Shown here in pieces: positions 3,155 through 59,150 of a stretch of 64,000 nucleotides of DNA; positions within the stretch are counted from its first letter, which is position 1, and each line of letters starts with the position of its first letter. This DNA is from Candidatus Babeliales bacterium (GTDB lineage Bacteria; Babelota; Babeliae; Babelales; JANWKD01). The translations under genes and the position numbers were made by a program. Below the pieces are notes generated by a model. It ran no database searches. It had not been told where the DNA came from and saw only the letters and a list, made by a program, of their open reading frames with translations. Location: NCBI GenBank assembly GCA_963722075.1, contig CAVRJM010000001.1, forward strand, positions 1,184,001 through 1,248,000, written 5' to 3'.

Positions 3155-3733
3155 ATGCGTCTTATATTAAAAAAACTGGCTCTCACGGGATCTGCTTTAT
3201 TTTTAAGTACAGCATTAAATGGTATGGAGATTGCAAGTGATGTAATACAGAGTTGCGTTACTTCACATATCTGTATAAAAACTGGCCAATTAATTCATGA
3301 ATTAGGTCATGTAGCTGTTGCGAAGATGCTATATGGTAATATCGATTGGAGATTTACTCAATTCTCCTTAAGTCCATTTAAAGGCATGAGGGTTTTTATA
3401 GATGCACAACCGGGAGGAATAAAGGATGCTCTGGTTACTTTGGAAGGTCCGCTATCGGCTTTATTAACAGGATATTTGCTATTGAAATGCAATAATGTTT
3501 TTTATGAACACCAATATAAAAAAAGGAGCTTCAAAAAGGCGGTTAAAAAAGGTTTTAAAAAGCCGTTGTTCAATAAAAATCAAAATCCAGGGATTCAAGC
3601 AGGCGCTTTTTGCTCAATGCTGTCTTGTGCAACAGATTTACTGTCGATAAATTTTAATACAACTAAATTTTTTCACATTGATAAAACCATGGACGGTTAT
3701 GGCGTACTTAAAGCTCTAGATTTGGTGAAATGA
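3155..3733 (+). CDS. Signal-peptide M50-like zinc metallopeptidase
   Basis: IHELGH (HExxH), downstream GP and C-terminal DG motifs; hydrophobic N-terminus. Confidence 0.6.
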   Translation: MRLILKKLALTGSALFLSTALNGMEIASDVIQSCVTSHICIKTGQLIHELGHVAVAKMLYGNIDWRFTQFSLSPFKGMRVFIDAQPGGIKDALVTLEGPLSALLTGYLLLKCNNVFYEHQYKKRSFKKAVKKGFKKPLFNKNQNPGIQAGAFCSMLSCATDLLSINFNTTKFFHIDKTMDGYGVLKALDLVK

Positions 3734-4570
3734 TTATTTATAACATGTATAAGAACTATTTATTTGTGTAATAGTAAATGGGCTTGGAACATTGTTTATA
3801 GTAAATCGATACAATGCTCCATCAATAATTGTTGTCGGTGCAATAATAAAAAAATCAGCGAGCGTAAGCCAGCAAAATGTAAAAAATAAGAATGGCGATA
3901 ATGTTTTCGTTATAATTATTAAAATAATTAAAATTATAAATGGGAAGAAATTCGTCTCTTTAACTATATGATGACCAAATGTTGCGGTTAATCGTTGATA
4001 TGCTTTTACAAAAGCTTCTTGAGAGTTGGTTTTTTCCCTTATTATTATTAATGGCGTTAGTGTTACCAAAGGCTCCCATGTGATTAATAGTTTTGTTTTG
4101 ATATAATCGTGAGTAAATGAACCCACAATTTCTTCTGCCTCTATAATTCGTCGTAACGATCTAAAAAAATAACCACCATAATATGATTTATTAGTTCGAT
4201 ACATAAATCGAAATACCCATGATAGCCATTCAAAATAGAGTATATTTTTTAAAGAAGAAACAACCTCTTTAATAGATCTTAAAATGTTTTGTTGGTTTTC
4301 AATAATTGAAAGTTCGTATTCGGTTTGGATAAGAAAAATTAATCGTAATAAAATAAAAATGATGGAGGCGAAGATAAGAAGAAAAAAAAGTAGAAAAACA
4401 GCTAAAAAATAGTTGTTTATTATATATGGTCGACCATAATAAAAAACCGCAAAACTCAATAATAAAAAAGCAAAAGCTATAAGGCTTCGTATTAAGCTAA
4501 AAATAAGAAGATATGGATGTTTTAAAATCCACCAATAAGCTGACAAATAAATGTTCATATTATCCAGCAC
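3734..4570 (-). CDS. Hypothetical multi-pass membrane protein
   Basis: 278-aa ORF with several hydrophobic segments; overlaps the mlaD stop, so probably the last gene of the operon. Confidence 0.65.
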   Translation of the reverse strand: MLDNMNIYLSAYWWILKHPYLLIFSLIRSLIAFAFLLLSFAVFYYGRPYIINNYFLAVFLLFFLLIFASIIFILLRLIFLIQTEYELSIIENQQNILRSIKEVVSSLKNILYFEWLSWVFRFMYRTNKSYYGGYFFRSLRRIIEAEEIVGSFTHDYIKTKLLITWEPLVTLTPLIIIREKTNSQEAFVKAYQRLTATFGHHIVKETNFFPFIILIILIIITKTLSPFLFFTFCWLTLADFFIIAPTTIIDGALYRFTINNVPSPFTITQINSSYTCYK

Positions 4571-6245
4571 TGGAGCCTAAGAAGCCAATTTTAGAAGCAA
4601 TGAATTTCAAGTCGTCATCACTGAAGCGTAATCCCATACCAAAGAATCCGTTAGCGTTGTTGCGGCTTACAAAGTCATCAGCGCCAAAGGCCATATAAAT
4701 ATTACGCATTACAAAGACGCGGTTAATCCATTTAACATGTGGATTTTGATCGTTGATACGATCTCGACCACGAAGATCAAAGATTTCAGCAGACATTACC
4801 CAACGGAATTTATCAGTACCAAAAGGAATTTCTATATCAAAGCCCATACCCACGGTGCTTTCAAAAAGCCCAAATCGAACGGCAACGTTTCTGAAAATCT
4901 TACCAATTTGAGCACCGTATTTAAATTTATCAAAGGTACGTTCGATGGTTTCAATTCTACCAATCAGTTCTGGTAAAAATATTCTATTGGTTTCTCTGGT
5001 GTTTGGCGGCGTATCTTTAAAAGTAAAATCAAAAATATCACTTGCTAGAATCTGCCTATTTTGTTCGTCATACCAGTTTTTTATGAGTTCATGACGGCTT
5101 AAAGATCCTTTTTGTGAGCCAACTAATTGGAAAATATAAAAATGATCATCGGTTGGATGAATGCGAACATCTAGGTACCCTTTAGTATCTTGATACCGGT
5201 ATGTTTCAGCAGGACGGTACATATATTCACCATGGGAATCAATTACAATGCTTAAATTGTCGATTTTAGCAAAATAATTTTTCAAGCCACCAACAGCTTG
5301 TTTAAGATCAAAGTATGCCTCATCTTCATTAACCAATTTGCCAATGAGGCCTTTGCCTTCATCGATTTTTTCGGCAATAGAAGTAATATTTTTAAATCCA
5401 TTCTTAGCTTCAATTGCTGCGCTTTCTAAAGCGTTAGTGGTATGCTCAAGTTGATAGGTAATGGTATGGAAGTCTCGATCAAAGACTTCTGAAACTTTTT
5501 CAATACTATTTTTAAATGCTGGTAAGAAATCGGTCTCAAGCTTATTTGAAAGTCTGCTCAAATCCTGTCCTAGATGTGGGACGGTATCTTTCATATCACT
5601 GGCAATATCACGAATATCAGAAAGAATAGTATTGATGGTATCTTCGTTATGAGAAAGTGTGCGGTCAAGCATTTCGGTGAAATCCGCAATTCGTTCAGCG
5701 GCGCGATTTAAATGTTCCATTGTTAATCGAAGTTCATCACGGCCTCGATCACCGCCGATCACCTCACGCAGTGAAGAGGTCACATCATCAACATTGGTAG
5801 CAATTGATTGCACTTTATATAAAATTTCATCAACTGAAGCAGGTGCTCTTCCCGGTTTACCAAGTGCTTGCCCAGCGTGCAAATGTGGTAAATAAGGATC
5901 CCCTGGAATGACTTCTAGATACTTAGTTCCTAAAAGGCCTTCTTGACGTACAATAGCATGCGCATCACTGTGCAGAATATATTTTTTTAAGATCATAATA
6001 TTGGCTTTTGCCTGATACTCATGATCTTCTACAAGCTCTATAGATTCTACCCAGCCAATTTTTACTCCTGCTATTTTAACCTCAGCTTTTTTTTCTAATC
6101 CTGAAATATCGTTAAAATAGACAATTTGGTGCTTATAGTTGTGTCGGTCAAGCCTGAAGACTCCTAGCTGCATAGTCATATAAAAAAAGAGCGCTAGCGC
6201 GCCAATTACTACCAGACCAACATGAGTTTCTGTTTTAATCTGCAA
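4560..6245 (-). CDS. mlaD: Long MCE/MlaD-family protein (TM anchor, MCE domain, helical stalk, beta-rich C-terminus)
   Basis: N-terminal TM, then F.DISGL....VKIAGVKIG.V and EGLLGTKYLEVIPG MCE motifs; long amphipathic helices; alternating beta strands ending GMGLRF. Confidence 0.85.
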   Translation of the reverse strand: MQIKTETHVGLVVIGALALFFYMTMQLGVFRLDRHNYKHQIVYFNDISGLEKKAEVKIAGVKIGWVESIELVEDHEYQAKANIMILKKYILHSDAHAIVRQEGLLGTKYLEVIPGDPYLPHLHAGQALGKPGRAPASVDEILYKVQSIATNVDDVTSSLREVIGGDRGRDELRLTMEHLNRAAERIADFTEMLDRTLSHNEDTINTILSDIRDIASDMKDTVPHLGQDLSRLSNKLETDFLPAFKNSIEKVSEVFDRDFHTITYQLEHTTNALESAAIEAKNGFKNITSIAEKIDEGKGLIGKLVNEDEAYFDLKQAVGGLKNYFAKIDNLSIVIDSHGEYMYRPAETYRYQDTKGYLDVRIHPTDDHFYIFQLVGSQKGSLSRHELIKNWYDEQNRQILASDIFDFTFKDTPPNTRETNRIFLPELIGRIETIERTFDKFKYGAQIGKIFRNVAVRFGLFESTVGMGFDIEIPFGTDKFRWVMSAEIFDLRGRDRINDQNPHVKWINRVFVMRNIYMAFGADDFVSRNNANGFFGMGLRFSDDDLKFIASKIGFLGSSAG

Positions 6246-6263
6246 AGTACATCCTTTTTCAGA

Positions 6264-7298
6264 TCAAAGCCAATATAATTTTTTTATCATAAAAGTAACT
6301 GGATCTTGTGCTTCTACAATTGCAAAAACCTTTTGAGTTATATTTCCTACTGTTCCATACGAAAGCACACTAAATGTTTTTGCATGAAATTTGTTCGCTA
6401 ACAGCATAGCAAGATCAGTCGGTATCGCTTTAAATTCTTTAGCATATAATTTTTCTAAACTTTGTTCCCATATAGTTTTAATATCTCCTGAAACCGATTT
6501 TATATTTTTTAATACTTCTTCTGGTATAGTGGCTGCCCTTTTTAACCCATATAAGGTGCTTATCGAATATGATAATAACCATGGGTTCATTGTTGTTTCA
6601 TGTGACCAGATAGTAAAAATATCTGTTAAATACACCGGCTGCTGCTCCTTTTTTGTTGGTACAGAAGGTTCATAAAAAACTTTGTCTTTAAAAACCGATT
6701 GAAACTCTTCTATAGCAAGTAATTCAGTAATATCTTGTAACTTATACTGCCTTTGTTTTAAAAACTTTTCAAATGGTTCAAATAAATTTTTATCATTTAA
6801 AAATTTTTTAGCTGAAGCAAACAGGGCACTTAATGCCTTTTTGCTATCTTGTGTTGCAGCCCCTTCATTTAAAAATTTTTTTGCTGAAAAATCAAATAAT
6901 TGATTAATGTCAATTTTACCATCTTCGCTCATAATACAAAATTTTACAATTCCTTCCATGCCATCAATATCGCCCTTAAGCGAAAACTCCTGCCAAAGAT
7001 TAATGAATGGTAGGTTTTTTTTTAAAAATAATAACGCAGGGTCTTCAGTTTTTTTTTGTTCTGCCCCTTTTTCTTCTTTTTCTGGTGATGGCGGCAATGA
7101 TAATTGATCAATGGCAAGTTGTATGCCTCCCTTAGCAAGCATTTTTGCTTTTTCTCGATCAACCATAGCGCGATCAAAATAGAAATGTACTCGTGCGCGA
7201 TTAAAAAGCTGCGTTACCATAACTACCATGATGCTCAAAATGATAAGGGTTAGTACTAAAACAAATCCCGGTGTGCTTTGCGATACTTTTTTCTTCAT
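6264..7298 (-). CDS. gspK: Type II secretion minor pseudopilin GspK-like
   Basis: PG|FVLVLTL prepilin without Glu5, SEDGKIDIN motif, position after gspJ. Confidence 0.8.
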   Translation of the reverse strand: MKKKVSQSTPGFVLVLTLIILSIMVVMVTQLFNRARVHFYFDRAMVDREKAKMLAKGGIQLAIDQLSLPPSPEKEEKGAEQKKTEDPALLFLKKNLPFINLWQEFSLKGDIDGMEGIVKFCIMSEDGKIDINQLFDFSAKKFLNEGAATQDSKKALSALFASAKKFLNDKNLFEPFEKFLKQRQYKLQDITELLAIEEFQSVFKDKVFYEPSVPTKKEQQPVYLTDIFTIWSHETTMNPWLLSYSISTLYGLKRAATIPEEVLKNIKSVSGDIKTIWEQSLEKLYAKEFKAIPTDLAMLLANKFHAKTFSVLSYGTVGNITQKVFAIVEAQDPVTFMIKKLYWL

Positions 7299-7305
7299 AT
7301 AATCC

Positions 7306-8286
7306 TCAGGTTTTAGCTGCTGACGGCGTCGGTGTTGCTTGTGCTGCTGGTGTTGATGGCGTAGGGGCAGGTGTAGGCGCGGGCGCAGGAGTGGCTTTTT
7401 GCGCTTGAGCGGGTTGCATAAGTGCTAAAAATGTTGGAATTTCATAATTAAAAGTGAAGCTCTTTTCTTGTTGCTGTTGATTATTCCATAATTCTAGCGA
7501 TACGGTTACAAATTGTGGCGTTTTTGGTTGCTCTTTTGGCGCTTTTTGTGATTCAACATCCCAGCTATAAACGGTTTTGAATTCTGGCTTAGGCTTTTCT
7601 TCTTTGGATTCTTTTTTTTCTGGTGTTGCTATTGTGGGTGGTGTTGGTGCTTTTGCTGGTTGCTGCGCTTGCTCTTTTTGTACCGGAAAAGAATATTCTA
7701 TTTTCATGTTTTTAATATTGGTAGCCAGTTCATAAGCGCGAATGGGCTTTGCTGATTTTAAATCAAATGCTTTTAGCTCTAACTCATTTGATTCTTGCCG
7801 GAGCAAGGTATATGATTTTTGTTCCTTTCCTTGTTGCGGTACTTGTTGTGGTATTAGACGATAAACAACGCGTACAAAGCGCGGTTTTGCTTTGGCATTT
7901 TTTGCTTTTTCATAAATTTTTACCGGATTATTTGTTAAAAAAGTGAGCATTTCTAAACTTCCTTCAGCGTTATTAGTGCTATAGAAGATATGCTCAATGG
8001 GCTTAGGAGGAGGTGCTTGGGCGGCTTCTTTTGCGGCCGGTTGAGTAGTTGTTTTTGCTGGTGTTGCTGTTTTAGTTAGATCTGGTTGGATGGGAATTAA
8101 AGCACCATCCAGATCTTTTTCAAACTGATTTGAAATTATCGCTGCTCTAAAATCGGTTTGAATAAAATTATCCGCGATATCGACGATGCGATGTGTTATA
8201 AAAAAACTATTATATAAAACCGTTGCAATAATGCCCGAAAGAAGGATTCCTATAGAAAGTTCAATTAAGGTAAAACCTGGTTTCAT
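7306..8286 (-). CDS. gspJ: Type II secretion minor pseudopilin GspJ-like with Pro/Ala/Thr-rich inserts
   Basis: KPG|FTLIEL class III signal; position in operon. Confidence 0.75.
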   Translation of the reverse strand: MKPGFTLIELSIGILLSGIIATVLYNSFFITHRIVDIADNFIQTDFRAAIISNQFEKDLDGALIPIQPDLTKTATPAKTTTQPAAKEAAQAPPPKPIEHIFYSTNNAEGSLEMLTFLTNNPVKIYEKAKNAKAKPRFVRVVYRLIPQQVPQQGKEQKSYTLLRQESNELELKAFDLKSAKPIRAYELATNIKNMKIEYSFPVQKEQAQQPAKAPTPPTIATPEKKESKEEKPKPEFKTVYSWDVESQKAPKEQPKTPQFVTVSLELWNNQQQQEKSFTFNYEIPTFLALMQPAQAQKATPAPAPTPAPTPSTPAAQATPTPSAAKT

Positions 8287-8708
8287 TTCTTTTTTTGTTC
8301 CTCTTTTTGCGGAGCTTTATAAAGAAATGTTATCATTTTTTCTTGCAATTTAATAATGCCGTGTTGCCATTGGGCTTGTGCTTTTTCAATGATCGTATTG
8401 GAAAATTTTTTGAGCGACGAATGTTCATTAATCGGGCCCGTTGAAAAAGTAACCTCAGCAGCTTCAGTGGTAGCTTTTTTGGTAGGCTCTTCTTGTTGCT
8501 TTGCGCGCTGCAAGGAAGCGATTATAAAATTATTCCTCAGGGACAATACATGAGTTAGTTTTGAAGAGCTCGTAACAATTGAACCAAATGAGGTATTTTG
8601 TAAATTTAAAATTGCCGTCATAAGCATACCGAGCATAATTATGGCAATCATAACTTCAATAAGACTGAAGCCAGAGGCGGTTATATTATGGTTTTTGAAA
8701 TGTATCAT
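8283..8708 (-). CDS. gspI: Minor pseudopilin GspI-like
   Basis: SG|FSLIEVMIAI class III signal; position in operon. Confidence 0.7.
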   Translation of the reverse strand: MIHFKNHNITASGFSLIEVMIAIIMLGMLMTAILNLQNTSFGSIVTSSSKLTHVLSLRNNFIIASLQRAKQQEEPTKKATTEAAEVTFSTGPINEHSSLKKFSNTIIEKAQAQWQHGIIKLQEKMITFLYKAPQKEEQKKK

Positions 8709-9228
8709 ATTCTTTTAATTGAACCGTAAAAGGATTAAGCACTAGCCCTATATGTACCTGAGGAGTCCCACTGGTATCAATCATATTCATTACTACTTCT
8801 TGGCTCATTCCTTCGGGTACAATAAAGAACCAGAAGGTAAGTACTTCTCGATCGGGTCTATATTCATTGACTCCATCAAGAAAGAAGTCTTTTATTTCAA
8901 TAGATGGTGGTATTTCATAATAGGTTTTTCTAAATGTTTGTGGCACCGATTTAAAACCGGTGGTTACTACGGCTGGATCTTCAATTTCTAATTTTATTAT
9001 TCTTTTTTTTGTATCAAAGAAAACCCGGTGAACTTTTTGAGTAATTAACGAATTTTGCCAGCCAAGCGCGAGTAAATTATTCAATTCTGATAAAAATGCC
9101 TTACGTTGATACCCCGGAAGTCGTTGCTGCAAATTTGGAATAACAATGGTTGCCATTAGACCAATGATCATAATGACAACCATTAATTCAATTAAGGTAA
9201 ATCCTTGTTTTTTACATTTTCCAAACAT
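8686..9228 (-). CDS. gspH: Minor pseudopilin GspH-like
   Basis: KQG|FTLIELMVVI class III signal; position in operon. Confidence 0.75.
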   Translation of the reverse strand: MFGKCKKQGFTLIELMVVIMIIGLMATIVIPNLQQRLPGYQRKAFLSELNNLLALGWQNSLITQKVHRVFFDTKKRIIKLEIEDPAVVTTGFKSVPQTFRKTYYEIPPSIEIKDFFLDGVNEYRPDREVLTFWFFIVPEGMSQEVVMNMIDTSGTPQVHIGLVLNPFTVQLKEYDTFQKP

Positions 9229-9619
9229 CTAAACGGTCCTCAGCCGGTGCTGCTTCGCCTTCTGGGCCATAGGAGTAGAGTTCATAGGGATGGTCTGCTC
9301 CTGGGGTTGGTTTATATTGAAAATCATTGCCCCATGGATCTTTTGGAACTTCAGCTTTTTTTAAGTAAGGCGGTTTTGCATTAATTAAATCTTCAAGTGT
9401 TTTAGGATAGGAGCCTTTTTCTCCGTGATAAGCATCAATAGCATTTTCTAAGGCGCGTATGCTTGCTTTTGCTGCATTTTCTCGACCAGATATCACCCAG
9501 CGATAAGCATTAGGCACCACAACTGCTGCTAAGATCCCGATGATCATAATAACGACCATTATTTCTATTAACGAGAACCCCTCTTTGATTGTTCTATATG
9601 AGAACTGTTTGGTATTCAT
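9212..9619 (-). CDS. gspG: Major pseudopilin GspG
   Basis: KEG|FSLIEIMVV plus PKDPWGNDFQY and LYSYGPEG GspG motifs. Confidence 0.92.
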   Translation of the reverse strand: MNTKQFSYRTIKEGFSLIEIMVVIMIIGILAAVVVPNAYRWVISGRENAAKASIRALENAIDAYHGEKGSYPKTLEDLINAKPPYLKKAEVPKDPWGNDFQYKPTPGADHPYELYSYGPEGEAAPAEDRLDVWKM

Positions 9620-9636
9620 AACATTCCTTTCGTTTA

Positions 9637-10848
9637 TTATCCCATTTGAGTCATTTTCATCATTGGTTGAACGACTGACATAACTACAAAGCCAACCACC
9701 ACCGCCATTATTAACAGCATTATTGGCTCAAGTTTAGAAGCAAGGCTATCAGAAAACTCCGAAAGATCTGCTTCATAATTTTTTGCTACGGTTAATAACA
9801 TTAAGTCAAGCTGGCCACTCTCTTCTCCTGTTTTTAAAAGGTAGATTGCAATAGGAGGAAAAATTCCCGTTTGGCGTAAATATTCAGCAATCTTACCTTG
9901 TTTGATAATATTTTCACGCGCTTTATTAAGGGCATCTTTTAATATTCGATTATCAATAATTTTTACCACAATATCTAAAGCTTCAGAAAGATTAACGCCA
10001 CTTTCCATGAGCATACCCAGCGTGCGACTAAATTGAACAACGGCACCCATGCGGGTAAAAAATTTTATTATAGGAATTTTTAATTTAATATTATCAATGG
10101 TTTTAGCCCCTTGGGGGGTTTTACTCCAATAACGATACGCAATAACTAATATTATTATAAAAATGGCAATATATAAATAATATGTCCGTAAAAAATCTGA
10201 AGTAGCCATTAAACTACGTGTCGATAATGGCAGCTCAGCTCCTTGGGAGGCCAGCGTTTCAGTTAATGTTGGTATGACAAAGGTTAATAAGCCAACAATT
10301 ACAATAACAACAACAATTAATTGGATAATGGGATAGGTAAGCGCTCCCTTTACTTTCTTTTGTAATTCGGCACGCCGTTCCATATATTCAACTAAACGGT
10401 CTAAAATGACTTCAAGTTTACCGCTTGCTTCCCCGGCACGTACCAATTGAACGTAAATAGTGTCAAAGACTTTAGGGTATTTACTTAAGCCATCAGCAAA
10501 TGATTTACCCTCTTTAATACCATCTTTAATGGAAATAACTATTGATTTTAATCTCCCTTCAAATTGTTCAATCAACAATTCCAATGCCTGCAGTAATGGA
10601 ATGCCTGATTTAAGAAGCACTGATAGCTGTTTGGTAAATAAGATCTTATCTTTAAGTGAGACCTTTTTTTGCAATAATCTTTTATACCAGGGTTGTGCGC
10701 CTAATTGATCTTTGGCAATTTGAACTGAAATAGGGTACATCCCTTGCTTAGCTAATTGCTGCAAGACTGCTTCTTGGGAGGGGGCATCCAATGTACCTTT
10801 AGTTTTTTTGCCATCCTTGCCATATGCTTGGTAAGAATATAAAGCCAT
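9637..10848 (-). CDS. gspF: Type II secretion / type IV pilus inner-membrane platform protein GspF/PilC
   Basis: Two GspF domains (LVRAGEASGKL, TGEESGQLD), ALTYP, LEPIM. Confidence 0.93.
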   Translation of the reverse strand: MALYSYQAYGKDGKKTKGTLDAPSQEAVLQQLAKQGMYPISVQIAKDQLGAQPWYKRLLQKKVSLKDKILFTKQLSVLLKSGIPLLQALELLIEQFEGRLKSIVISIKDGIKEGKSFADGLSKYPKVFDTIYVQLVRAGEASGKLEVILDRLVEYMERRAELQKKVKGALTYPIIQLIVVVIVIVGLLTFVIPTLTETLASQGAELPLSTRSLMATSDFLRTYYLYIAIFIIILVIAYRYWSKTPQGAKTIDNIKLKIPIIKFFTRMGAVVQFSRTLGMLMESGVNLSEALDIVVKIIDNRILKDALNKARENIIKQGKIAEYLRQTGIFPPIAIYLLKTGEESGQLDLMLLTVAKNYEADLSEFSDSLASKLEPIMLLIMAVVVGFVVMSVVQPMMKMTQMG

Positions 10849-10942: not shown

Positions 10943-11908
10943 ATGAAAAGTACAACATTTTTGTTTTTCATCGTTTTACTTCTTGGTTTTTCATTAAATA
11001 CGATGCAGGGATATATTGCCCAAGAAGATGATAAAGATTTTCTATATGCTTGTTGTATGCCGCTAGATTTTAATCAACCCCGTATTATCCATGGATTTTT
11101 AAAGCGCATTTTAAGTGATAAACGATATGCATATGAATATTTTCCTTATAATATTAATTCTCATCTTATGCAATTTTTAGATCATGGTAAAGCTGTTAAA
11201 CATAATGCAACGTATACAGAATCATCATTGCGCTTATTTTATAATTGTATGAAGCGTGCACCATTCGTATGTAATAAAGCTTTTTCAGAGCTTCTTGATA
11301 AGGCTCCTCAATTATTAAATAATATTTCCAAAAATAATAATACCTATTCATTTTTTGATACCATTGAACAAAAAATGATGGGCGTATTTGTGCCAACTTT
11401 TTTACATCAGTTCCCCTTATTTAAAGCTAATCCTGAAGAATTTTTTAAAAGTCTTTCGCATGAATTGCGTATGATGATTGAAAGTACTTTCAACGCGCAA
11501 GATCATATTGCTCATGAACAAATGAAACAAATGTTTGTTCGTTTTGTAGAATTAGGGCTCTTAAAATTAATGTGGGATCCTTATAATTACGATGAATTAT
11601 GGAGTTCGGTAAAGCATATTTCTTTACAGCTTGAACAAGTTGCACAAATGGGATTAATCACCATTGATGAGCTTGATGATTGTTATAAATCATTACTAGA
11701 AAGTTTTTATCGCTTTGTTGATTTAAATGGGGCAGAGTTTCCTATGGCATTGATAGAAACTATTAAGGAAGATTTAGCATCACAAAAATTACTGCTATTT
11801 GAATTAGAAGAGCAAGAAGCGTCGCTTGAAAGCAAACGAGAACGCATGATCGGTGTATTAATTGATTTGGAAGCGCAGATTGAAGCACGTAAACGTGGAA
11901 TAATTTAA
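10943..11908 (+). CDS. Hypothetical secreted helical protein
   Basis: 321-aa ORF with AAGGAG RBS and signal peptide ending LNT|MQ. Confidence 0.7.
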   Translation: MKSTTFLFFIVLLLGFSLNTMQGYIAQEDDKDFLYACCMPLDFNQPRIIHGFLKRILSDKRYAYEYFPYNINSHLMQFLDHGKAVKHNATYTESSLRLFYNCMKRAPFVCNKAFSELLDKAPQLLNNISKNNNTYSFFDTIEQKMMGVFVPTFLHQFPLFKANPEEFFKSLSHELRMMIESTFNAQDHIAHEQMKQMFVRFVELGLLKLMWDPYNYDELWSSVKHISLQLEQVAQMGLITIDELDDCYKSLLESFYRFVDLNGAEFPMALIETIKEDLASQKLLLFELEEQEASLESKRERMIGVLIDLEAQIEARKRGII

Positions 11909-12354: not shown

Positions 12355-12771
12355 ATGAAAGTAATTAATTTCTTAGCGGCTATTTTTGTCATTTTTTCTC
12401 TCAGCGCCGATCCCATTATTAATTATGCACAAATTGATCAATGGTGTGCGCAGGCAAAAAAATTGGAAAGCGAAGAAAAGAAATTATTGACTTCCTATTT
12501 TCAATTGGTACAGAACCTAGCGCAATCATGTATTAAGAACCATCATTGGCTCCATACCGATGAAGGCAAAAAGGTACAGCAAGAAATTGATGAAGCGGTT
12601 CAGCAACTTCTTGAAAACAAAAACCTTAAACCTGTTTTTGATAATTTTACGGTATTAATCCATGAAGAAACCAATCAAAAGCAGCAGGATACTGATTGTC
12701 AAAATCCCCACACGTTTTATTACACAATTTTAGAAATGGTGGTTGAGGGATGCCTAGTATGTATTCAATGA
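12355..12771 (+). CDS. Hypothetical secreted protein
   Basis: Signal peptide ending LSA; GGGGAG RBS. Confidence 0.6.
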   Translation: MKVINFLAAIFVIFSLSADPIINYAQIDQWCAQAKKLESEEKKLLTSYFQLVQNLAQSCIKNHHWLHTDEGKKVQQEIDEAVQQLLENKNLKPVFDNFTVLIHEETNQKQQDTDCQNPHTFYYTILEMVVEGCLVCIQ

Positions 12772-13736
12772 TGCAATTGCACATATCTACTATACGATAA
12801 ATAACCGCGTGCCAATTCAGAAGAAAGGGCAAATCGTTCTTTAGGATCAGAAATGAATACTCCTTCGGTCTCTACTTCTGAAGACTCCTCTGGGGCTTGT
12901 AAAGTTCTTACGTAAGGCAATACCTTGGTAACTAATTCTAACTCGGTGATTTCTTTTTGTTGATGTCGGCGAATTAACGGTTCTTCATCATCTTGATTGT
13001 GCAATTTATTGATTAACCAATGTATGCCGCGCATACACCAAGGAAGTTCTAAATAACGCGCTTTTTTAACTGATTCAAAGAGATCCGACGAAATAGCAAT
13101 AGTTCTTTGAGTAGCTCTTTTTCGGATATCGTTTTTTACCAATATAGCTGGATTTAATGAATGTCCCTTTTGTTTTCCAGCTATTTGCATAATATCTTTT
13201 TGCGTGGTGAATAATGCTGCCAATGCTAATAAACCGCCAGCAATTAACCCCTCTTTACCATTCTTGTTATATAAAGCAGCGAGTGATTCACCCATTCCCA
13301 CCCCCAAAAGACCGCCTACCAATAGTTTTCTCAATGTACATAATTCATTAGTGTCTTTAGTTTTTTTGCAAAAGAGTGAAGCCCCAAGTGCACCGATAGA
13401 TGTTCGATAGCCAATTGCATAAGAAGCGTCACCATCGACGTAAGACATTTTAGAATTACATACTAATTGAGCGCCAGTACCAATAAGTGCGGATGATAAT
13501 ACAGTGTTAGAAATTCCTTCATCAAGAAGAAAACATAATCCAATATAAGCCGATAAAACCCCCATTCCTACCCGTATCCCTTTTATATACAAAGGCTCTG
13601 GCTGTGAAAGATCTTTTAATTTTATTGTATTAAATATTGTACTCATGACATCAAGCATAGTTCCTTCCATTGCTTGTAATGAGCAAGAACTATTTATCAA
13701 TAGACTTAAAACCAGTATATACCATTTTTTTATCAT
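12765..13736 (-). CDS. Hypothetical secreted/membrane protein with Gly-rich hydrophobic helices
   Basis: Signal ending LQA|ME; several Gly-rich hydrophobic segments. Confidence 0.65.
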   Translation of the reverse strand: MIKKWYILVLSLLINSSCSLQAMEGTMLDVMSTIFNTIKLKDLSQPEPLYIKGIRVGMGVLSAYIGLCFLLDEGISNTVLSSALIGTGAQLVCNSKMSYVDGDASYAIGYRTSIGALGASLFCKKTKDTNELCTLRKLLVGGLLGVGMGESLAALYNKNGKEGLIAGGLLALAALFTTQKDIMQIAGKQKGHSLNPAILVKNDIRKRATQRTIAISSDLFESVKKARYLELPWCMRGIHWLINKLHNQDDEEPLIRRHQQKEITELELVTKVLPYVRTLQAPEESSEVETEGVFISDPKERFALSSELARGYLSYSRYVQLHH

Positions 13737-13813: not shown

Positions 13814-14290
13814 ATGAATCTCCAAATATCAGCATACTTTTTTCTTAGTATTGTATCTATTAATTCCCTTACTTTTTCAATGAATAATCAGCAGGCGCAT
13901 GAAAAAAAGGTTATTGAAAATATAATAGCTTATAGCATGCAAGAAATATCTTCATTTGAAGAACTACAAAGATTTGTTGGATCTATTGTAGTGATTGATG
14001 CAATTCGCCCAAAGCCAATTCCTAAAAAATATACTATTTTGGACATTGATACGAGCCATTGGTGTGGACATATTGAGCCGACTCCTTATAACGACAATAA
14101 GGGCGATCTTTGTTTTAACTTAGCGCGCTTAATAAAAAATGGTAATTTTGCTAAAAGTTATTTAATTACCCAAAAAAAGTTAAAAAAAGGATTGCTGATA
14201 CGAATGACAACGTTAAAAGAACAAATCGCTATACAAGAAGCAGTCGACAATGATGAAGCGCATTTTGAATATTATAGAGTGATTGATTGA
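13814..14290 (+). CDS. Hypothetical secreted protein
   Basis: Signal ending TFS|MN; AGGA RBS. Confidence 0.6.
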   Translation: MNLQISAYFFLSIVSINSLTFSMNNQQAHEKKVIENIIAYSMQEISSFEELQRFVGSIVVIDAIRPKPIPKKYTILDIDTSHWCGHIEPTPYNDNKGDLCFNLARLIKNGNFAKSYLITQKKLKKGLLIRMTTLKEQIAIQEAVDNDEAHFEYYRVID

Positions 14291-19116: not shown

Positions 19117-19791
19117 ATGTCTATATATAAGAATGTGCTTATTATTTTTTCTTTTGTTTTCATGAGTTGCTGTGCAATGAATGATGAGCAAAGGAGTTAT
19201 TCAACATTAATGATAGATTCTCCATTTGCTGATAGTGCAAATGTCCATGGCTATAATCAATATGCGTCTACTGAATTTCAGCGATATTGTTTTGAGAAAT
19301 TGATTCCTAAAGATGTTGTTGCTGATGTCTTACTTGAGTTATTTGAGAAAAAATTATTGATAATGTCCGATGAAGAGGCCGTGCATGGTGAAGAATCCCC
19401 TGCTGATTTCGATCAGCATATAAAACTATCTTCTCTTGAGCTACTTTCCTATAAACCGATATATGAAAAAGAAATTACAGCACTGCAAAAGGAACTGGAC
19501 GAAAAAAGACTTCCGCTTTCATTTGTTGTACCAACGGCAGGATTGTTAGCAATATCATTTGGGTCAATGGTGCAGTTTTCAATGCTCAAAGAGCCGTTGC
19601 TTAATTTCGATGAGGTTTCTGGTGTGGTCTGGGCGTCAATGATGCTTGCGGAGGGATTATATTTTGGATTTTATACCTCAAAAGATCGAAAAGAAGTAAA
19701 AATGCTTCGCCAGATCCACCGATTACAGAAAATCTTAAATTATATAAAGAAATTTGAAAACAAACCAAATCGAATACAGGTAGATTTATAA
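19117..19791 (+). CDS. Hypothetical secreted protein with coiled coil and two-TM hairpin
   Basis: Likely start MSIYKN; signal ending CCA|MN; two hydrophobic helices near the C-terminus. Confidence 0.6.
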   Translation: MSIYKNVLIIFSFVFMSCCAMNDEQRSYSTLMIDSPFADSANVHGYNQYASTEFQRYCFEKLIPKDVVADVLLELFEKKLLIMSDEEAVHGEESPADFDQHIKLSSLELLSYKPIYEKEITALQKELDEKRLPLSFVVPTAGLLAISFGSMVQFSMLKEPLLNFDEVSGVVWASMMLAEGLYFGFYTSKDRKEVKMLRQIHRLQKILNYIKKFENKPNRIQVDL

Positions 19792-19794: not shown

Positions 19795-20391
19795 ATGAAT
19801 ATCTTAAACCGAATGTTAATTCTATTTTTTCTTGTCGCGCCTTCAAAAAGTTATTCAATGGAAGTAGGTAAAGTTTTTACTGATTTTCTTGCCAAGAATA
19901 ACGTTCTTGAAACTGCTGATAAATATGGTGCCGGAATTTTTGCATTAACGGCAGGCTCGGTTATAGGATATTCAATTTTATTTAATATTATTTCAGACCG
20001 TATAAGCCCTTATAAACAACGAGCAGGAAAAGATGCTAAACCAAATTCCTGGTTTGCAATAAAGCAAGGAATAAAAGAAGGATATAAGATGGGTTTAGGA
20101 ATAGGAGCTATGGTTACTCTCACAAGCAAAATTGGGCCATGGCCTACATTTAATAATAATGAGTTAATAAAGCCGTTGGCTTCAGGATTGGCTTTTATAG
20201 GGTTATTTTCTTTTTATGATAGTTACAAAAAACTTAAACTTTACGAGAAGTTTGAGAATGAATGGACAAAGAATAAGTTATTCGTGCGTGATGCAAAACT
20301 AACTTCTCAACATTTTGCATATCTAGCGCCGCTATGGTTATTAGGTTATATAGCACATCATCGCTTGCAAAAAAATTTGGTACTAATATGA
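19795..20391 (+). CDS. Hypothetical membrane protein, paralog 1 of a tandem trio
   Basis: Signal ending SYS|ME; motif SKIGPWPTFNNNELIKP shared with neighbours. Confidence 0.65.
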   Translation: MNILNRMLILFFLVAPSKSYSMEVGKVFTDFLAKNNVLETADKYGAGIFALTAGSVIGYSILFNIISDRISPYKQRAGKDAKPNSWFAIKQGIKEGYKMGLGIGAMVTLTSKIGPWPTFNNNELIKPLASGLAFIGLFSFYDSYKKLKLYEKFENEWTKNKLFVRDAKLTSQHFAYLAPLWLLGYIAHHRLQKNLVLI

Positions 20392-20987
20392 ATATAAAAA
20401 AATTATTATTTATTTTTCTGTTAATTCCGACTGCCTCAAATTATTCCATGGAATTGACTAAGCCAATTCTCAATTCGATGGCAAATTCAGAAACGGCAAA
20501 AATGTTTGCATTAACTGCCGGAGTTTCTGTTGCACTTAGTTGTGCAGAGGTTCCATTGCGATTTGGTTATTATGAAGAAGATCAGAGAAAAGAATTGGTT
20601 TCCCAGTTAAAGTCAGGGAAATTTATAGCAAAAAAAATCCTGGCCGATGGGATCTTGTGTGGAGGCCTTATAACCTTATGCGCACGGCTTGGTTCTAAGT
20701 GGCCACAATATACTAATGAGGAGTTCATAAAGCAGGGCAAGATTCTTATGGCATTGGTAACAATACCATCATTTTTGATATGCGGGATAAGCTATGCATG
20801 TAATCCATTCGGCAATGCATTAGATCCTATAAAAAGAAGATGGGAACATCGATGGCGGCAATCATTAAATAAAGAGAGGCGGGCTTTTAGCACAGGGTTA
20901 ACCCATCTTATTTACTTTGTTTGTTATAATTTGGGAGCAGTTGGGTTTCCGTTATATATACTTTTTAATCGTTATAGAGCACGTTAA
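20388..20987 (+). CDS. Hypothetical membrane protein, paralog 2 of a tandem trio
   Basis: ATGA overlap with previous stop; signal ending NYS|ME; motif ARLGSKWPQYTNEEFIK. Confidence 0.65.
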   Translation: MNIKKLLFIFLLIPTASNYSMELTKPILNSMANSETAKMFALTAGVSVALSCAEVPLRFGYYEEDQRKELVSQLKSGKFIAKKILADGILCGGLITLCARLGSKWPQYTNEEFIKQGKILMALVTIPSFLICGISYACNPFGNALDPIKRRWEHRWRQSLNKERRAFSTGLTHLIYFVCYNLGAVGFPLYILFNRYRAR

Positions 20988-20995: not shown

Positions 20996-21547
20996 ATGAA
21001 TATAAAAAATATTATGATCATTTTGTTGTTTGGAATATCATTGCAGCAAGTCAAGGCGATGGATAAAGAAAATTTGAAAGAAATGGCTGTTATAATAGGA
21101 GGGGCTGCTATTGTATGTGGTACTTTTAAACATATTAAAGATCACTATTGTCCTTATTTTAAATATAAAACATCAAAAAAATTTGGTACAAATAGGCAAG
21201 CGATTATGAGTGAGCTACATCCATTTTTGCATGGTAGTTTATACGGAATTGCTTTGGCTTGCACTGCTCGATTAGGAAATTTTGGACCTAAATTAACAGC
21301 TCTTGAGTTGGCAAAACCGGTTATTGCTTCAATGGTTGGCGGCATGGCATTATCGGGTTTGTTAGGAGTCGCATATAAATATTATTCAGGATCTCAAAAA
21401 AAACAATCAAAAATTATCAGAACTACGTCTCAATGGGTAGATATTGTTTTGCCTAGTATTGCGGTTTTCTGTGTTGATGCATATCGAGTAAAAAATCTAG
21501 TATGGGCTGATTTTTTGAATAGCTACAATCGCTATAAAATGAGTTAA
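20996..21547 (+). CDS. Hypothetical membrane protein, paralog 3 of a tandem trio
   Basis: Signal ending VKA|MD; motif ARLGNFGPKLTALELAKP. Confidence 0.65.
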   Translation: MNIKNIMIILLFGISLQQVKAMDKENLKEMAVIIGGAAIVCGTFKHIKDHYCPYFKYKTSKKFGTNRQAIMSELHPFLHGSLYGIALACTARLGNFGPKLTALELAKPVIASMVGGMALSGLLGVAYKYYSGSQKKQSKIIRTTSQWVDIVLPSIAVFCVDAYRVKNLVWADFLNSYNRYKMS

Positions 21548-21705: not shown

Positions 21706-22656
21706 ATGAAATTATATGAAATAATTTTGTTGTTAATAACAATCATTCATATGAATTGCATGTTTGGAATGAATCAAGGAGAAGATTCTTGGATGTATGG
21801 TAGTGGTTCTCACTTAGCATCTTCTTCTTTACCCGCTACTCCACGTACACCACGCTCTCAAGAAGAACTTACTGCTGTTTCTCAACATTTTGGTAGCTTG
21901 AGTGAATCAGCATATATTCCAGTTCAATTTAGATCTGTGGCAATGATAACAGAAACGCCTTTTAATAGCCCATCAAATCGAAACTCACCTAGTGCCGATT
22001 TTGAAAGCGGTTCTAGTGAAAGCAGTAGCGACAATAGTGATAGCGATAATGAAGATGAAGCAAAAAATAAACCAAAAAATAAAGCACTTACGCAAAAAGC
22101 AGCATTAAGCTTAAATTGCATACTAAATAATAAAAACGAGCTATCTCAATTTGGAATTCTATATACAAATCCTCTTTTACAAGGGCGAGCGTTTGTTCAA
22201 TTTTTAAAGCAAAAAAAACTTATAGTCAAAGAAAACGATACTAATGAAAATAATGTTTCATTAGATACCGTTGTGCGGCTCAAAGAAGCGGTGCAACAAT
22301 ATAAAAATCATTTAGAAATAATGATACAAGAAAAAAATATAGAAAAAGCATCTATTAATAAAAGTTTATATTGGGGCTTTGCGTCATTGGCAACTCTTCC
22401 ATTTATAGGGATTTCTTCTTATTTAATAAGCATATCCGATTTATTATATAAGGATTGCGCGAAATATTATGCATTAGGATTAGGGGCACTTACGTTGAGT
22501 TACGGCGTATATAAAGTAACTAGTGGAATATCTAAAAGTAAGTGCATCAATGAATGCTTAAAGGAATATAAAGTTGAACATGATATTGCCTTTGATTTAG
22601 TTAATCGAACTATACCGTATGCAGAAGGTCAATCAAATACAGGTCAATTACAATAA
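21706..22656 (+). CDS. Hypothetical secreted Ser/Asp-rich protein with two-TM hairpin
   Basis: Signal ending MFG|MN; low-complexity Ser/Asp region; two TM helices. Confidence 0.7.
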   Translation: MKLYEIILLLITIIHMNCMFGMNQGEDSWMYGSGSHLASSSLPATPRTPRSQEELTAVSQHFGSLSESAYIPVQFRSVAMITETPFNSPSNRNSPSADFESGSSESSSDNSDSDNEDEAKNKPKNKALTQKAALSLNCILNNKNELSQFGILYTNPLLQGRAFVQFLKQKKLIVKENDTNENNVSLDTVVRLKEAVQQYKNHLEIMIQEKNIEKASINKSLYWGFASLATLPFIGISSYLISISDLLYKDCAKYYALGLGALTLSYGVYKVTSGISKSKCINECLKEYKVEHDIAFDLVNRTIPYAEGQSNTGQLQ

Positions 22657-31271: not shown

Positions 31272-32629
31272 TGTATAAAAAAAGCTTATTTATCTTTCGT
31301 CGAGATTTGCGCTTAGAAGATAATATTGGCTTAAATGAAGCATTACGAAATTCAGCCCATGTTATTCCTTGTTTCATTTTTGATCTACGCCAATTATCAC
31401 CGGATAATGAATTCCGTTCATTACGTGCTATTACCTTTATGATAGAATCTTTGCTTGATTTACAAAAACAACTTAAACACGTCAATGGAAAGCTTTATTT
31501 TTTTTCGGGTATTGCTGAAGAAGTAGTAAAGAAAATAATAAAACAAGAGTCAATAGAAGCGGTATATTTTAATCGTGATTATACGCCATTCAGTATAAAG
31601 CGTGACGAAGCAATAAAAAAAGCGTGTATTCAAAATAATGTTGATTTTTTTATATGTGACGATGCGCTTTTAAATCCACCTGAATCAATAAAAACGCAAA
31701 AAAATGAACCGTTTTCAAAATTTACTCCGTATTATAAAAAAGCACTACTGTATTCCGTTGATAAACCTGCTTTTTTAGCAGGTGCTCATTTCTATCACAA
31801 ACCCATAAACGATACGCTTTCAGGTAATATAGACCCATTAATAGAAATTAAAAATGAGGTCATTAAGGGCGGCTCTAAAGAAGCAGCAAAGATTTTACGA
31901 TCATTAAAGAAATTTAAAAATTATGCGCATGAACATGATTTTCCTTCAATTGCTACCACCCATCTTTCAGCGCATAATAAATTTGGCACCGTTTCAATTA
32001 GGACTGTTTATCATGCAATAAAAAAGCAACTAGGAGCAGGGCATCCGCTGCTACGTCAATTATATTGGCGCGACTTTTTTACCTATGTTGCCTATCATTC
32101 TCCCTTTGTTTTTGGTGAGTCATTTTATAAAAAATATGAAAAGTTGTGGTGGAGTGATAATAAAAAATTATTTACATTGTGGTGCGAAGGCAAAACAGGA
32201 TTCCCTATTGTTGATGCAGGAATGAGAGAATTAAATCAAACAGGGTTTATGCATAATAGGGTGCGATTGCTAGTTGCATCATTCTTAGTAAAGGATTTGC
32301 ATATAAACTGGCTCTGGGGAGAACGCTATTTTGCCCAACATTTAATTGATTATGATCCAGCCGTAAATAATGGTAATTGGCAATGGTGTGCTTCTACTGG
32401 GTGTGATGCGCAGCCCTATTTTAGAATATTTAATCCCTGGTTACAGCAAAAAAAATTTGATGCTGAATGTGTATATATTAAAAAATGGATACCTGAACTC
32501 AAAGATGTAGAGAACGCTACTATTCATACCTGGTATGCGCAAAAGCAATCGATCAACAATTATCCATTACCAATTGTAGATCATGCTTATGAGAGCAAAA
32601 TAGCTAAAAAACTCTTTAAAAACCTCTAA
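31271..32629 (+). CDS. phrB: Deoxyribodipyrimidine photolyase (class I CPD)
   Basis: FRRDLRLEDN, LYWRDF, GKTGFPIVDAGMREL, GFMHNRVR, DYDPAVNNGNWQW, FRIFNP; TAATG overlap start. Confidence 0.95.
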   Translation: MYKKSLFIFRRDLRLEDNIGLNEALRNSAHVIPCFIFDLRQLSPDNEFRSLRAITFMIESLLDLQKQLKHVNGKLYFFSGIAEEVVKKIIKQESIEAVYFNRDYTPFSIKRDEAIKKACIQNNVDFFICDDALLNPPESIKTQKNEPFSKFTPYYKKALLYSVDKPAFLAGAHFYHKPINDTLSGNIDPLIEIKNEVIKGGSKEAAKILRSLKKFKNYAHEHDFPSIATTHLSAHNKFGTVSIRTVYHAIKKQLGAGHPLLRQLYWRDFFTYVAYHSPFVFGESFYKKYEKLWWSDNKKLFTLWCEGKTGFPIVDAGMRELNQTGFMHNRVRLLVASFLVKDLHINWLWGERYFAQHLIDYDPAVNNGNWQWCASTGCDAQPYFRIFNPWLQQKKFDAECVYIKKWIPELKDVENATIHTWYAQKQSINNYPLPIVDHAYESKIAKKLFKNL

Positions 32630-32693
32630 TATTGCAATTTGAAACTATAAAATAGTATAATTATAGTAGCTATTTATCTGAAAAGGAGTTATT

Positions 32694-33311
32694 ATGAATA
32701 AAAAATCACCTATTATAACCTTTCTTTTATCAACTGTTTTATTTTCTTTAGAAGCAAATCATAATATTGAAAAATATATTCCAAAGATTGCTGAGCAAAT
32801 TAACGCTCTAGAGTTTTATCACCCAAAAGTTCAAGGATGGACGCCTTTTGAGCAGATAAGTTTATTTTTACACCAAGCAGGTTTTAAACAAGAAAAACCA
32901 AACCCAAATATTCAAATTGATGGAAAAACTCTTTTGATGTATTTCATGGAAAAAGTAACAGGAAATCGTATCGAAGCGCTTAAACGTTTATTAAAAGTTT
33001 TAAATAATTATATGATGGATATAAATGTAATTGCTGATAATGGGATGACAGCACTTACATTTGCTGCCTCAAGAAATGATAATGAAATGGTAGAAGGATT
33101 AATCACGTATGGCAAAGCTGATGTTAATCAGCCTGATGCATTTGGCAAAACATATAGGGATTATTTAATAGAAAATGAAATAAAAAGAAAAGAAAAAGTG
33201 GAAGAGGAATTGCGAAGGGAATTTGAGTTTATTCGTACCAAAGAAGAATTGGAAGAAGAGCGGGAAAAAGAATTAGAAAAAGAACTTGAAGAATGGGAAA
33301 TAATTGGTTAA
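32694..33311 (+). CDS. Secreted ankyrin-repeat protein with acidic LIR-like C-tail (paralog of 30603)
   Basis: ADNGMTALTFAAS shared with the 30603 ORF; signal peptide. Confidence 0.85.
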   Translation: MNKKSPIITFLLSTVLFSLEANHNIEKYIPKIAEQINALEFYHPKVQGWTPFEQISLFLHQAGFKQEKPNPNIQIDGKTLLMYFMEKVTGNRIEALKRLLKVLNNYMMDINVIADNGMTALTFAASRNDNEMVEGLITYGKADVNQPDAFGKTYRDYLIENEIKRKEKVEEELRREFEFIRTKEELEEEREKELEKELEEWEIIG

Positions 33312-33336
33312 CCAATTACTATAAATGGAGTGTTGT

Positions 33337-33894
33337 ATGAAAATTAATAAATTATTTTTATTGGTATCGATGAGTTTTATTGCAAATTTATTTTGTTCAT
33401 ATTCTTTACGCCAAGATATTCCAAACAAAGCATTATTTGATGCTATTGAAAATGCGAATGTTAACGCGGTGAGAGTATTGTTAGCAGAAAAAAGAATTAA
33501 TCCAAATATACCATATCAAGGGAAATCTGCGCTTATTAAAGCAATTACGTTATCAGATCCTAATGCAAAAGCAATTGTGGAATTGCTCCTAAAGCATGAT
33601 GCTAATCCCGATTACATTGATGATTCGGGAATGACTCCTTTAGTAGCTGCTAAATATGTTAATAAGCCGGATATTGTTTTGCTGCTATTGCAATATGGGG
33701 CTCGGGTAACCACTGATAAAACATTACGTGAAGAGAAAAAGCCTAAAATTACCTGTCCGTATGAAAAAGGCCTTAAGAAATTAGAAAAAGAATTTTATAT
33801 GGTGCCTGAAGAGCCTAAAAAAGAAGAAGAGGAATGGACGGTAATCGAAAGCCCTAAATCTGCATGGGAGACATTAAAGCGCTGGCTCTATTAA
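33337..33894 (+). CDS. Secreted ankyrin-repeat protein with acidic LIR-like C-tail
   Basis: LFDAIEN, GKSALIKA, LLLKHDANPD, GMTPLVAA, LLLQYGA; signal peptide. Confidence 0.85.
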   Translation: MKINKLFLLVSMSFIANLFCSYSLRQDIPNKALFDAIENANVNAVRVLLAEKRINPNIPYQGKSALIKAITLSDPNAKAIVELLLKHDANPDYIDDSGMTPLVAAKYVNKPDIVLLLLQYGARVTTDKTLREEKKPKITCPYEKGLKKLEKEFYMVPEEPKKEEEEWTVIESPKSAWETLKRWLY

Positions 33895-37480: not shown

Positions 37481-37551
37481 TAATGAAGCTGCTAGCGCGG
37501 ATAAAAAACAGGCGAGAGATATAATTATTTCAATTAATTTGACTCATTTTA

Positions 37552-42282: not shown

Positions 42283-42299
42283 TATATGAGGTAGTTAGC

Positions 42300-42334
42300 A
42301 AGGGTCTCATCTATTAATGCATGAGACCCTTTTT
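42300..42334 (+). terminator. Rho-independent terminator
   Basis: AAGGGTCTCAT-loop-ATGAGACCCTT with a T run. Confidence 0.85.
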
Positions 42335-42444
42335 ATTTTTATAAAAATTTAATGTATTGACATTTAAAATAAATTAATTTTAATCTATCTTAATCCAACA
42401 CAAAAAAGAGAGTATATTTTTTAAAAAAAAGGAGAGAGGGTTAA

Positions 42445-47099: not shown

Positions 47100-47112
47100 T
47101 AATTATCAAAAT

Positions 47113-58652: not shown

Positions 58653-58706
58653 TTAAAAATCAAGAGAAAAGTTTCTATATCATTTCCCTTGATTTTAAGA
58701 TAGATA

Positions 58707-59150
58707 TTACTTTTTGCGCGGTTTAATTTTCTTGCTAAAATACTCTTGACTAAATTCTTCACTGGTTTGGTATCCGTCTACTTCTCCTTCACCATCTTGA
58801 TAGCGAATAGAATTGTTCTTCTTGCAGCATTGAGAAAATGTTTTTGCCATCTCACAACTGCGAAATATACAACATGATACTATCCCTACCGAAAGACCGA
58901 AGACGCTTCCCGTGAATAAAACCAGGGGATCTATATCCGTATATTTATAAAATACTAACGCTTCTAGCGTTACTGCTGCGGTAAGAGAAGTTCCTGCGCC
59001 GAATATTTTCCATAGCCACGCCACTTGAGCAGACCGTTGACTATTAGAGGCAGTTGAATCAACCGTATAATCTTCATCTATATATGGTTCCATTCCATAG
59101 TTAAGAGTGCTATAAAAAAATAAACAAACAAGAAAAAAGTTTTTTTTCAT
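58707..59150 (-). CDS. Hypothetical secreted protein with two-TM hairpin
   Basis: Likely start MKKNFF after AAGGGG; signal ending NYG|ME; bilobed hydrophobic segment. Confidence 0.6.
   Translation of the reverse strand: MKKNFFLVCLFFYSTLNYGMEPYIDEDYTVDSTASNSQRSAQVAWLWKIFGAGTSLTAAVTLEALVFYKYTDIDPLVLFTGSVFGLSVGIVSCCIFRSCEMAKTFSQCCKKNNSIRYQDGEGEVDGYQTSEEFSQEYFSKKIKPRKK

Follow-up and report, generated by a model that had tools for sequence, protein, structure and literature searches.

Many exported proteins of a Candidatus Babeliales bacterium (Dependentiae) follow a lineage-typical rule at their predicted mature N-terminus, in which the predicted signal peptidase cut falls between a small residue and a methionine (Met) that is mostly followed by Glu, Gln, Asn or Asp. 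The junction was noticed in eleven genes of the stretch C1:1184001-1248000 (64,000 nucleotides, hereafter the window), part of an assembly of 1,466,044 bases with 35% guanine plus cytosine and 99% completeness, and the genome-wide analysis presented here confirmed that the rule is real. Dependentiae are a phylum infecting protists; hardly any member has been cultured, and the greater part of the large exported proteome belongs to no known family. The Met marks a subset of exported proteins that looks host-directed, and it is not required by all such proteins. The explanation favoured here, held with somewhat less than even confidence, is that the mature N-terminus is tuned to survive host N-degron control.

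Methionine at the predicted +1 position

Across the genome 1492 open reading frames (ORFs) were called, and 596 of these were signal-peptide-like under a strict filter allowing at most two further hydrophobic segments. This filter superseded a looser initial one (808 proteins); it lets in false positives and misses three of the eleven window genes (3155, 13814 and 21706). All cut positions are predictions from sequence. A small residue followed by Met and Asp, Glu, Asn or Gln was present in 178 of the 596 proteins, as compared with a mean of 24.5 and a maximum of 45 in 1000 shuffles. A predictor blind to Met, which scores only -3, -1 and distance, gave Met at +1 in 142/596 (other offsets 1-31, background Met 1.8%), and a published Gram-negative P10-P1 matrix (PMC2638155) gave 111/596 (other offsets 5-45); where both predictors concurred the count was 85/290. 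The published frequencies of +1 Met are 0.00% of 307 Gram-negative, 0.60% of 168 Gram-positive and 1.12% of 1877 eukaryotic substrates (PMC2638155). What was noticed in the window thus holds genome-wide, at 142/596 versus 0/307 published Gram-negative substrates.

Leaders of the core class (188 genes) carry signal peptidase I features, namely a basic n-region and a hydrophobic core, and are mostly 17-25 residues long. The cut was placed exactly before Met in 91/188 of these proteins by the Gram-negative matrix and in 70/188 by a eukaryotic one. At unconstrained sites with Met followed by Asp, Glu, Gln or Asn, a small residue stood at -1 in 191/220, and -3 was mainly Leu, Ile or Ser, not Ala. 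The core-class genes form 155 families, 127 of them singletons, and paralogues retain the small residue and Met although their leaders diverge. Met is absent in approximately 57% of the signal-peptide proteins (341/596), and +1 Gln was seen in 30/596 compared with 142/596 for Met, unlike the Gln majority of the Q-rule discussed below.

Proteins carrying the methionine

The Pfam scan covered 525 of the 596 signal-peptide-like proteins, and the domain classes (envelope, eukaryote-like) are our own sorting of its matches. The 171 core-class proteins scanned included ankyrin (10), WD40 (8), C2H2 (5), J-domain (5) and AAA (2) proteins and six other single matches. Ankyrin, WD40, C2H2 and J-domain proteins thus made up 28/171, as opposed to 15/295 eukaryote-like proteins in the non-Met class (p=9e-5, a significance overstated because genes and genomes that are related do not count as independent). 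The contrast with periplasmic and envelope housekeeping proteins, which had been suggested as a check, was also present, with 0/171 in the core class versus 22/295 in the non-Met and lipoprotein classes. Besides these 22 envelope proteins, the 295 comprise many enzymes and the 15 eukaryote-like proteins, which are ankyrin (7), RING (2), macrodomain (2), UCH, SET, MavL-like and one weak WD40. The class with Met followed by Lys, His, Arg or Tyr (30 scanned of 32) contained ankyrin (6), WD40 (2), TPR (1), PEBP (1) and beta-helix (1) proteins. A residual class of 29, in which Met often lies inside the leader, includes OmpH, thioredoxin, a penicillin-binding protein, a secretin and two ankyrin proteins, and was kept out of the enrichment tests.

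Three cases only of the non-Met proteins, one RING (L050:3473-4432), the UCH (L051:260-1651) and the MavL-like protein (L042:8657-10141), have a predicted Gln start, which could cyclise and so provide an alternative protected end. A second shared module was observed at the mature N-terminus of 21 exported proteins and is a candidate targeting module; it consists of an amphipathic helix rich in Leu, in many cases with a Pro-rich linker behind it. It was seen 0 times in a downstream control window; 15/21 carriers are non-Met, and the cargo includes RING, MavL-like and endonuclease/phosphatase proteins. Examples are:
Genome G000, Leu-rich helix module: L042:8657-10141, L050:3473-4432, L020:5774-6844, L049:5748-12893

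The residue following methionine

After a Met-blind +1 Met (n=142), the +2 residue was Glu in 64, Gln in 21, Asn in 17, Asp in 16, Lys in 6, His in 5, Ser in 3, Pro, Leu, Tyr and Phe in 2 each, and Val and Cys in 1 each. Asp, Glu, Asn or Gln therefore followed Met in 118/142, compared with 53/164 in the non-Met class, and the expected enrichment of these residues stands against the genome's own background. It is partly general, as the same four residues already occupy +2 in 45% of published Gram-negative substrates (PMC2638155), and to that extent it counts against a Met-specific explanation. Small residues (Ala, Cys, Gly, Pro, Ser, Thr, Val) were found in only 7/142 after Met, compared with 37/164 in the non-Met class and 45% of the published Gram-negative set (PMC2638155), and their depletion is the distinctive part of the +2 pattern. 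A small +2 residue lets methionine aminopeptidase take the Met and can expose Cys, Pro, Gly or Ala degrons, and a Met-hydrophobic start can itself act as a degron (PMC8037982); bulky hydrophobic residues followed Met in 6/142.

Distribution in Dependentiae and control genomes

The Met rule is widespread yet uneven among Dependentiae. The DNA pattern of the junction had a median of 19 matches per megabase (Mb) in 151 Dependentiae genomes (range 5-88), with more than 20 in 72 genomes and no more than 12 in 29, and a median of 6.9 (maximum 20) in 35 comparison genomes. The latter were Escherichia coli, chlamydiae, Rickettsiales, gammaproteobacteria and Cardinium/Amoebophilaceae, and exclude unplaced and Holosporales-like genomes and Endozoicomonas G181, whose excess was discarded as a repeat-array artefact. 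Other genomes served as the baseline because a reversed-pattern control understates the background (22 matches in E. coli, 4 in the control). Four genomes of the same family had 48-124 matches. In samples of 40 kilobases (kb) read directly, Met was seen in 3/14 proteins in G022, 0/12 in G057 and 0/3 in G007. Ser is at the predicted +1 of 5/12 proteins in G057 (L280-L281), and other lineages may use another first residue.

Direct controls gave 0/36 for E. coli, 1/13 for a Parachlamydiaceae genome, 0/48 for chlamydial loci, 1/29 for rickettsial and 0/13 for gammaproteobacterial proteins (pooled 2/139), where the transporter-flanking loci are weak controls, being housekeeping-rich and giving 0/34 for the unplaced group too. 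Full-text literature searches, the coverage of which leaves out most subscription journals, returned no report of a Met rule, and a word search of the main texts of PMC6561590, PMC4378268 and PMC4776705 did not find 'methionine'.

Recurrence in a second lineage

Other intracellular bacteria were reached via a nucleotide-transporter motif. The Met motif recurs in Candidatus Paracaedibacter and in some other endosymbiotic alphaproteobacteria, a lineage unrelated to Dependentiae. The latter are labelled Holosporales-type only on the basis of names and of a type VI sheath gene found in 11/12, which we take to be a pointer to Holosporales, and not of phylogeny. In Candidatus Paracaedibacter symbiosus (G208) the motif was present in 12/56 signal-peptide proteins from 400 kb (shuffle mean 2.0, maximum 7), versus 2/139 in the pooled controls; G174 was weaker, with 10/92 (shuffle mean 3.0, maximum 10). 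In-frame junctions counted by eye amounted to approximately 13/40 in G208 (five from one family), 21/36 in G224, 5/16 in G176 and 5/22 in G163, and to 0/22 in E. coli, 0/15 in G167 and 0/14 in G204. The Pfam scan of this lineage covered 57/142 proteins. The eleven Met proteins of G208 comprised LRR, Sel1 and one GH3 matches and eight without a match, and its non-Met set contained BamB, FlgI, ZnuA, porin-like and binding proteins and one LRR protein. Leaders ending in Met-Glu or Met-Asp junctions were also seen in G174 on PD-(D/E)XK transposase-like nucleases (L227:4326-5471, L230:4948-6096) and a Myb-domain protein (L230:14829-15437). A plasmid search queried with a phosphotransferase-like protein returned nothing useful.

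Genes of the window

The eleven ORFs from which the rule was first proposed are all present, each with a small residue before Met and Asp, Glu, Asn or Gln behind a signal-peptide-like leader of 19-23 residues (the slash marks the predicted cut):
3155..3733, forward: 192-residue exported protein, LNG/ME, Met codon 3224, HExxH motif
10943..11908, forward: 321-residue Dependentiae core protein, LNT/MQ, Met codon 11003, head-to-head with gspF
12765..13736, reverse: 323-residue exported protein, LQA/ME, Met codon 13670, no Pfam or NCBIfam match
13814..14290, forward: 158-residue protein, TFS/MN, Met codon 13880, weakest case (n-region without Lys or Arg, matrix rank 7)
19117..19791, forward: 224-residue exported protein, CCA/MN, Met codon 19177
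19795..20391, forward: 198-residue exported protein, SYS/ME, Met codon 19858, paralogue of 20388
20388..20987, forward: 199-residue exported protein, NYS/ME, Met codon 20448, paralogue of 19795
20996..21547, forward: 183-residue exported protein, VKA/MD, Met codon 21059
21706..22656, forward: 316-residue exported protein, MFG/MN, Met codon 21769
30001..30438, reverse: 145-residue exported protein, MFA/ME, Met codon 30375
58707..59150, reverse: 147-residue exported protein, NYG/ME, Met codon 59093
30603..33894, forward: three exported ankyrin proteins without Met (30603, 32694, 33325), exceptions within the window
6264..10848, reverse: type II secretion cluster with GspF-like 9637-10848, GspG 9212-9619 and four downstream genes with pilin-like leaders (by sequence reading only)

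AGG lies upstream of the first ATG in nine of the eleven genes, and none of the eleven has a Pfam or NCBIfam match. The Gram-negative matrix ranked the site before Met first in 3/11 and among its top three in 8/11, and the simple predictor was exact at the junction in five of the eight genes passing the strict filter. Of the exported enzymes described as lacking the Met, GlnA, CapA, the 25415 protein and the macrodomain protein do lack it, whereas the HAD label given to 25415 has no Pfam match behind it. Further window proteins without Met are the three ankyrin proteins and five small exported proteins of no known family.

The eleven had also been called orphans, a description that does not apply to 10943, for which a homologue was found in 41/41 Dependentiae genomes searched. 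Met stands at the junction in only 3/24 of its orthologues, and Ala replaces it in a 77%-identical homologue, so this protein is probably atypical of the Met class. Its predicted model is confident and all-helical (predicted local distance difference test score, 86), and a fold search with it gave no match at E<=0.001. Genes of this type are frequently head-to-head with gspF across Dependentiae, and 10943 is a candidate type II accessory factor. Homologues of 3155 were found in 2/61 genomes searched, and the protein database returned only 3155 itself; Met is kept in three of the four G001 homologues. The HExxH motif, from which 3155 is a possible exported metallopeptidase, is also present in these four, three of which are in tandem. 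An orthologue search with 19795 and a WD40 protein found none outside their own genome.

The glutamine synthetase at 992-2374 has a signal-peptide-like leader, which is odd for an ATP-dependent enzyme, and leaders were also seen on other normally cytosolic enzymes of the genome (MutS-like, NDK, methyltransferases). The regions 38887-46230 and 47436-58652 contain two paralogous proteins of 1131 and 1261 residues with Cys-Cys heptad repeats, beta-helix and beta-propeller, and a 3738-residue repeat protein with a C1q domain at its end, all of which are likely surface proteins. Two further regions, 17418-19036 and 36361-38699, contain an ATPase-like gene that appears broken into three overlapping ORFs and a pair of adjacent transposase-like ORFs (labels by reading).

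Explanations for the rule

If the N-terminus is tuned to survive host N-degron control, the proteins would be exported by Sec, signal peptidase I would cut between the small residue and Met, the cargo would cross the outer membrane, probably through the type II system, and the proteins would reach the host cytosol beginning like a cytosolic protein that retains its first Met. This Met, followed mostly by Glu, Gln, Asn or Asp, would likely shield them against host N-terminal degradation signals; host acetylation may come afterwards, and the explanation does not need it. What can be read from the sequences is the motif, its position, a constraint at residue level, the domain bias, the +2 bias and the recurrence in two phyla. 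Selection is placed in the host cytosol mainly because methionine aminopeptidases, which the choice of +2 residue avoids, are cytosolic. The original prediction of a eukaryote-like N-terminus on host-directed proteins agrees with the domain content and with the avoidance of +2 residues that permit Met excision.

Several points weigh against this explanation, in addition to the overstated p-values and the partly general +2 bias. Two RING, the UCH, SET and MavL-like proteins and seven ankyrin proteins lack the Met, and 135 of the 171 scanned core-class proteins have no Pfam match. Chlamydiae and Rickettsiales, which also live inside eukaryotic cells, show no excess. Ala, Ser, Thr, Val and Gly at +1 are likewise classed as stabilising, so that stability alone does not single out Met. 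An identical +2 pattern would also be expected from a receptor for Met-Glu. Finally, Asn or Gln is at +2 in 38/142, and the yeast Met aminopeptidase is able to cut Met before these residues (PMC8037982).

A possible explanation, though on the unlikely side, is that Met followed by Glu, Gln, Asn or Asp is a bacterial sorting tag for outer-membrane passage, read by a periplasmic chaperone or by the secretin/GspE/GspF machine. It would account for the lack of Met on envelope-resident proteins, and Met-x-x-Pro in 38/188 core-class proteins and the Leu-rich helix module on 21 proteins are consistent with it. The type II cluster of the window also fits: its GspG is above the TIGR01710 cut-off, and its GspF has TIGR02120 as best match, below the cut-off, as are two GspD-like secretins in the genome whose best matches are type II models. 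VipB, FHIPEP and VirB4 had no match over the cut-off in 8/8 Dependentiae genomes, and type III, IV or VI secretion was rejected as the common route. A secretin was present in all five motif-positive alphaproteobacteria tested. Motif-positive alphaproteobacteria also have the GspE/PilB and GspF/PilC pair, and the GspE/PilB ATPase is absent from 7/7 genomes labelled Rickettsiales and 3/3 Cardinium/Amoebophilaceae; no outer-membrane export machine other than a secretin with this pair was found in both lineages. GspG was matched in only 1/12 motif-candidate alphaproteobacteria, so the machine there may be a pilus, although this scarcity does not refute a type II tag because the secretin and the GspE/PilB and GspF/PilC pair are present. 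On the other hand, many effector-like exported proteins have no Met, neither G165 nor G167 shows a clear motif although both possess the ATPase, and the analogous Q-rule is reported not to act as a generic sorting signal (PMC5837995).

It is improbable, on the sequences, that the purpose is acetylation by host NatB, giving acetylated Met-Glu, Met-Asp, Met-Asn or Met-Gln ends for stability or binding. The +2 residues of 118/142 (53/164 in the non-Met class) are those of the NatB class (PMC9692967), but the enzyme is described as bound to the ribosome, where it modifies chains still being synthesised (PMC9692967), and these proteins would reach the host already complete. The class also excludes the 32 proteins that start with Met-Lys, Met-His, Met-Tyr or Met-Arg, of which 30 were scanned and eight proved to be ankyrin or WD40 proteins.

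A purely bacterial analogue of the Q-rule, in which signal peptidase prefers +1 Met or the Met is modified or protective against periplasmic aminopeptidases, appears distinctly improbable. The +1 rule of Bacteroidetes stabilises exported proteins (PMC10653852), and this genome has two LepB genes (L063, L064) and four GNAT proteins that are exported or anchored:
L028:8896-14298 and L042:6862-7428: GNAT acetyltransferases with N-terminal leaders (four, two weakly RimI-like)
The periplasmic and envelope proteins, as the expected main beneficiaries, are however those without Met, as are some 57% of signal-peptide proteins overall, and the motif-rich genomes G014, G031-G034 and G037 show one LepB match. 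A dedicated second signal peptidase was rejected as not required, since several motif-rich genomes have a single LepB match; many relatives likewise have one, compared with two signal peptidase I genes here.

The constraint acts on residues, not codons, and it is very improbable that the Met serves as an internal start codon or is the relic start of an older gene with a grafted signal-peptide cassette, even though only Met is enriched at +1 and carriers are mostly lineage-specific: AGG precedes 108/176 true starts versus 5/176 internal ATGs, GTG and TTG do not substitute (Val and Leu at the Met position show no excess of them), -1 and +2 codons match genome usage, and +2 Glu follows Met in 64/142 versus 21/378 at cytosolic starts, which together refute the internal start offered in the original prediction. 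The 188 leaders form 184 DNA clusters and change while paralogues keep the junction, which rules out one mobile leader cassette and, with the codon evidence, a nucleotide-level signal.

Implications and comparison with known systems

A three-residue junction that splits likely host-directed from envelope proteins is usable as an effector predictor (188 core-class genes of approximately 1492 ORFs), and it makes the action of Sec/type II cargo in the host cytosol testable, for which a simple reporter assay is possible. The recurrence in Holosporales-type endosymbionts suggests that the two lineages either face the same pressure from protein quality control in eukaryotes or share an export route. 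It is conceivable, though we consider it doubtful, that the re-creation of a eukaryotic 'start' on Sec-exported effectors evolved twice, independently, in unrelated endosymbionts of protists; the host cytosol would treat Met-Glu, Met-Asp, Met-Gln or Met-Asn as self and may acetylate it after translation, and the junction may double as the cargo tag of a type II-like route that delivers hundreds of effectors to the host cytosol without an injection needle.

In the processing of Plasmodium PEXEL and oomycete RxLR proteins, host-directed proteins likewise acquire a new N-terminus, short and conserved, through cleavage. Those systems belong to eukaryotic pathogens and rely on a further protease and an RxL motif; the consensus here shows nothing of the kind. 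Dependentiae have been described as having a very large signal-peptide proteome, with signal peptides on most ankyrin proteins, and type II is reported as the only secretion system of Babela (PMC4378268, PMC6561590). The retained Met of eukaryotic proteins, as known from NatB and N-degron work (PMC9692967, PMC3104970, PMC8037982), is likewise followed by Glu, Asp, Asn or Gln, with Met-small and Met-hydrophobic starts avoided, but the Met of the present proteins would become N-terminal through a bacterial peptidase acting after export and not through initiation. The closest known system is the Bacteroidetes Q-rule (PMC5837995, PMC10653852), which also concerns a lineage-typical +1 residue of signal peptidase I substrates and for which stabilisation is proposed. 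That rule covers most substrates, including periplasmic ones, whereas Met marks approximately a third of exported proteins and spares the envelope. For the Met rule no dedicated enzyme was identified, although no search aimed at a glutaminyl cyclase was made. With Met in place of Gln, a tight +2 class and an occurrence in two unrelated lineages, the rule described here resembles the Q-rule in form but is not a member of it.

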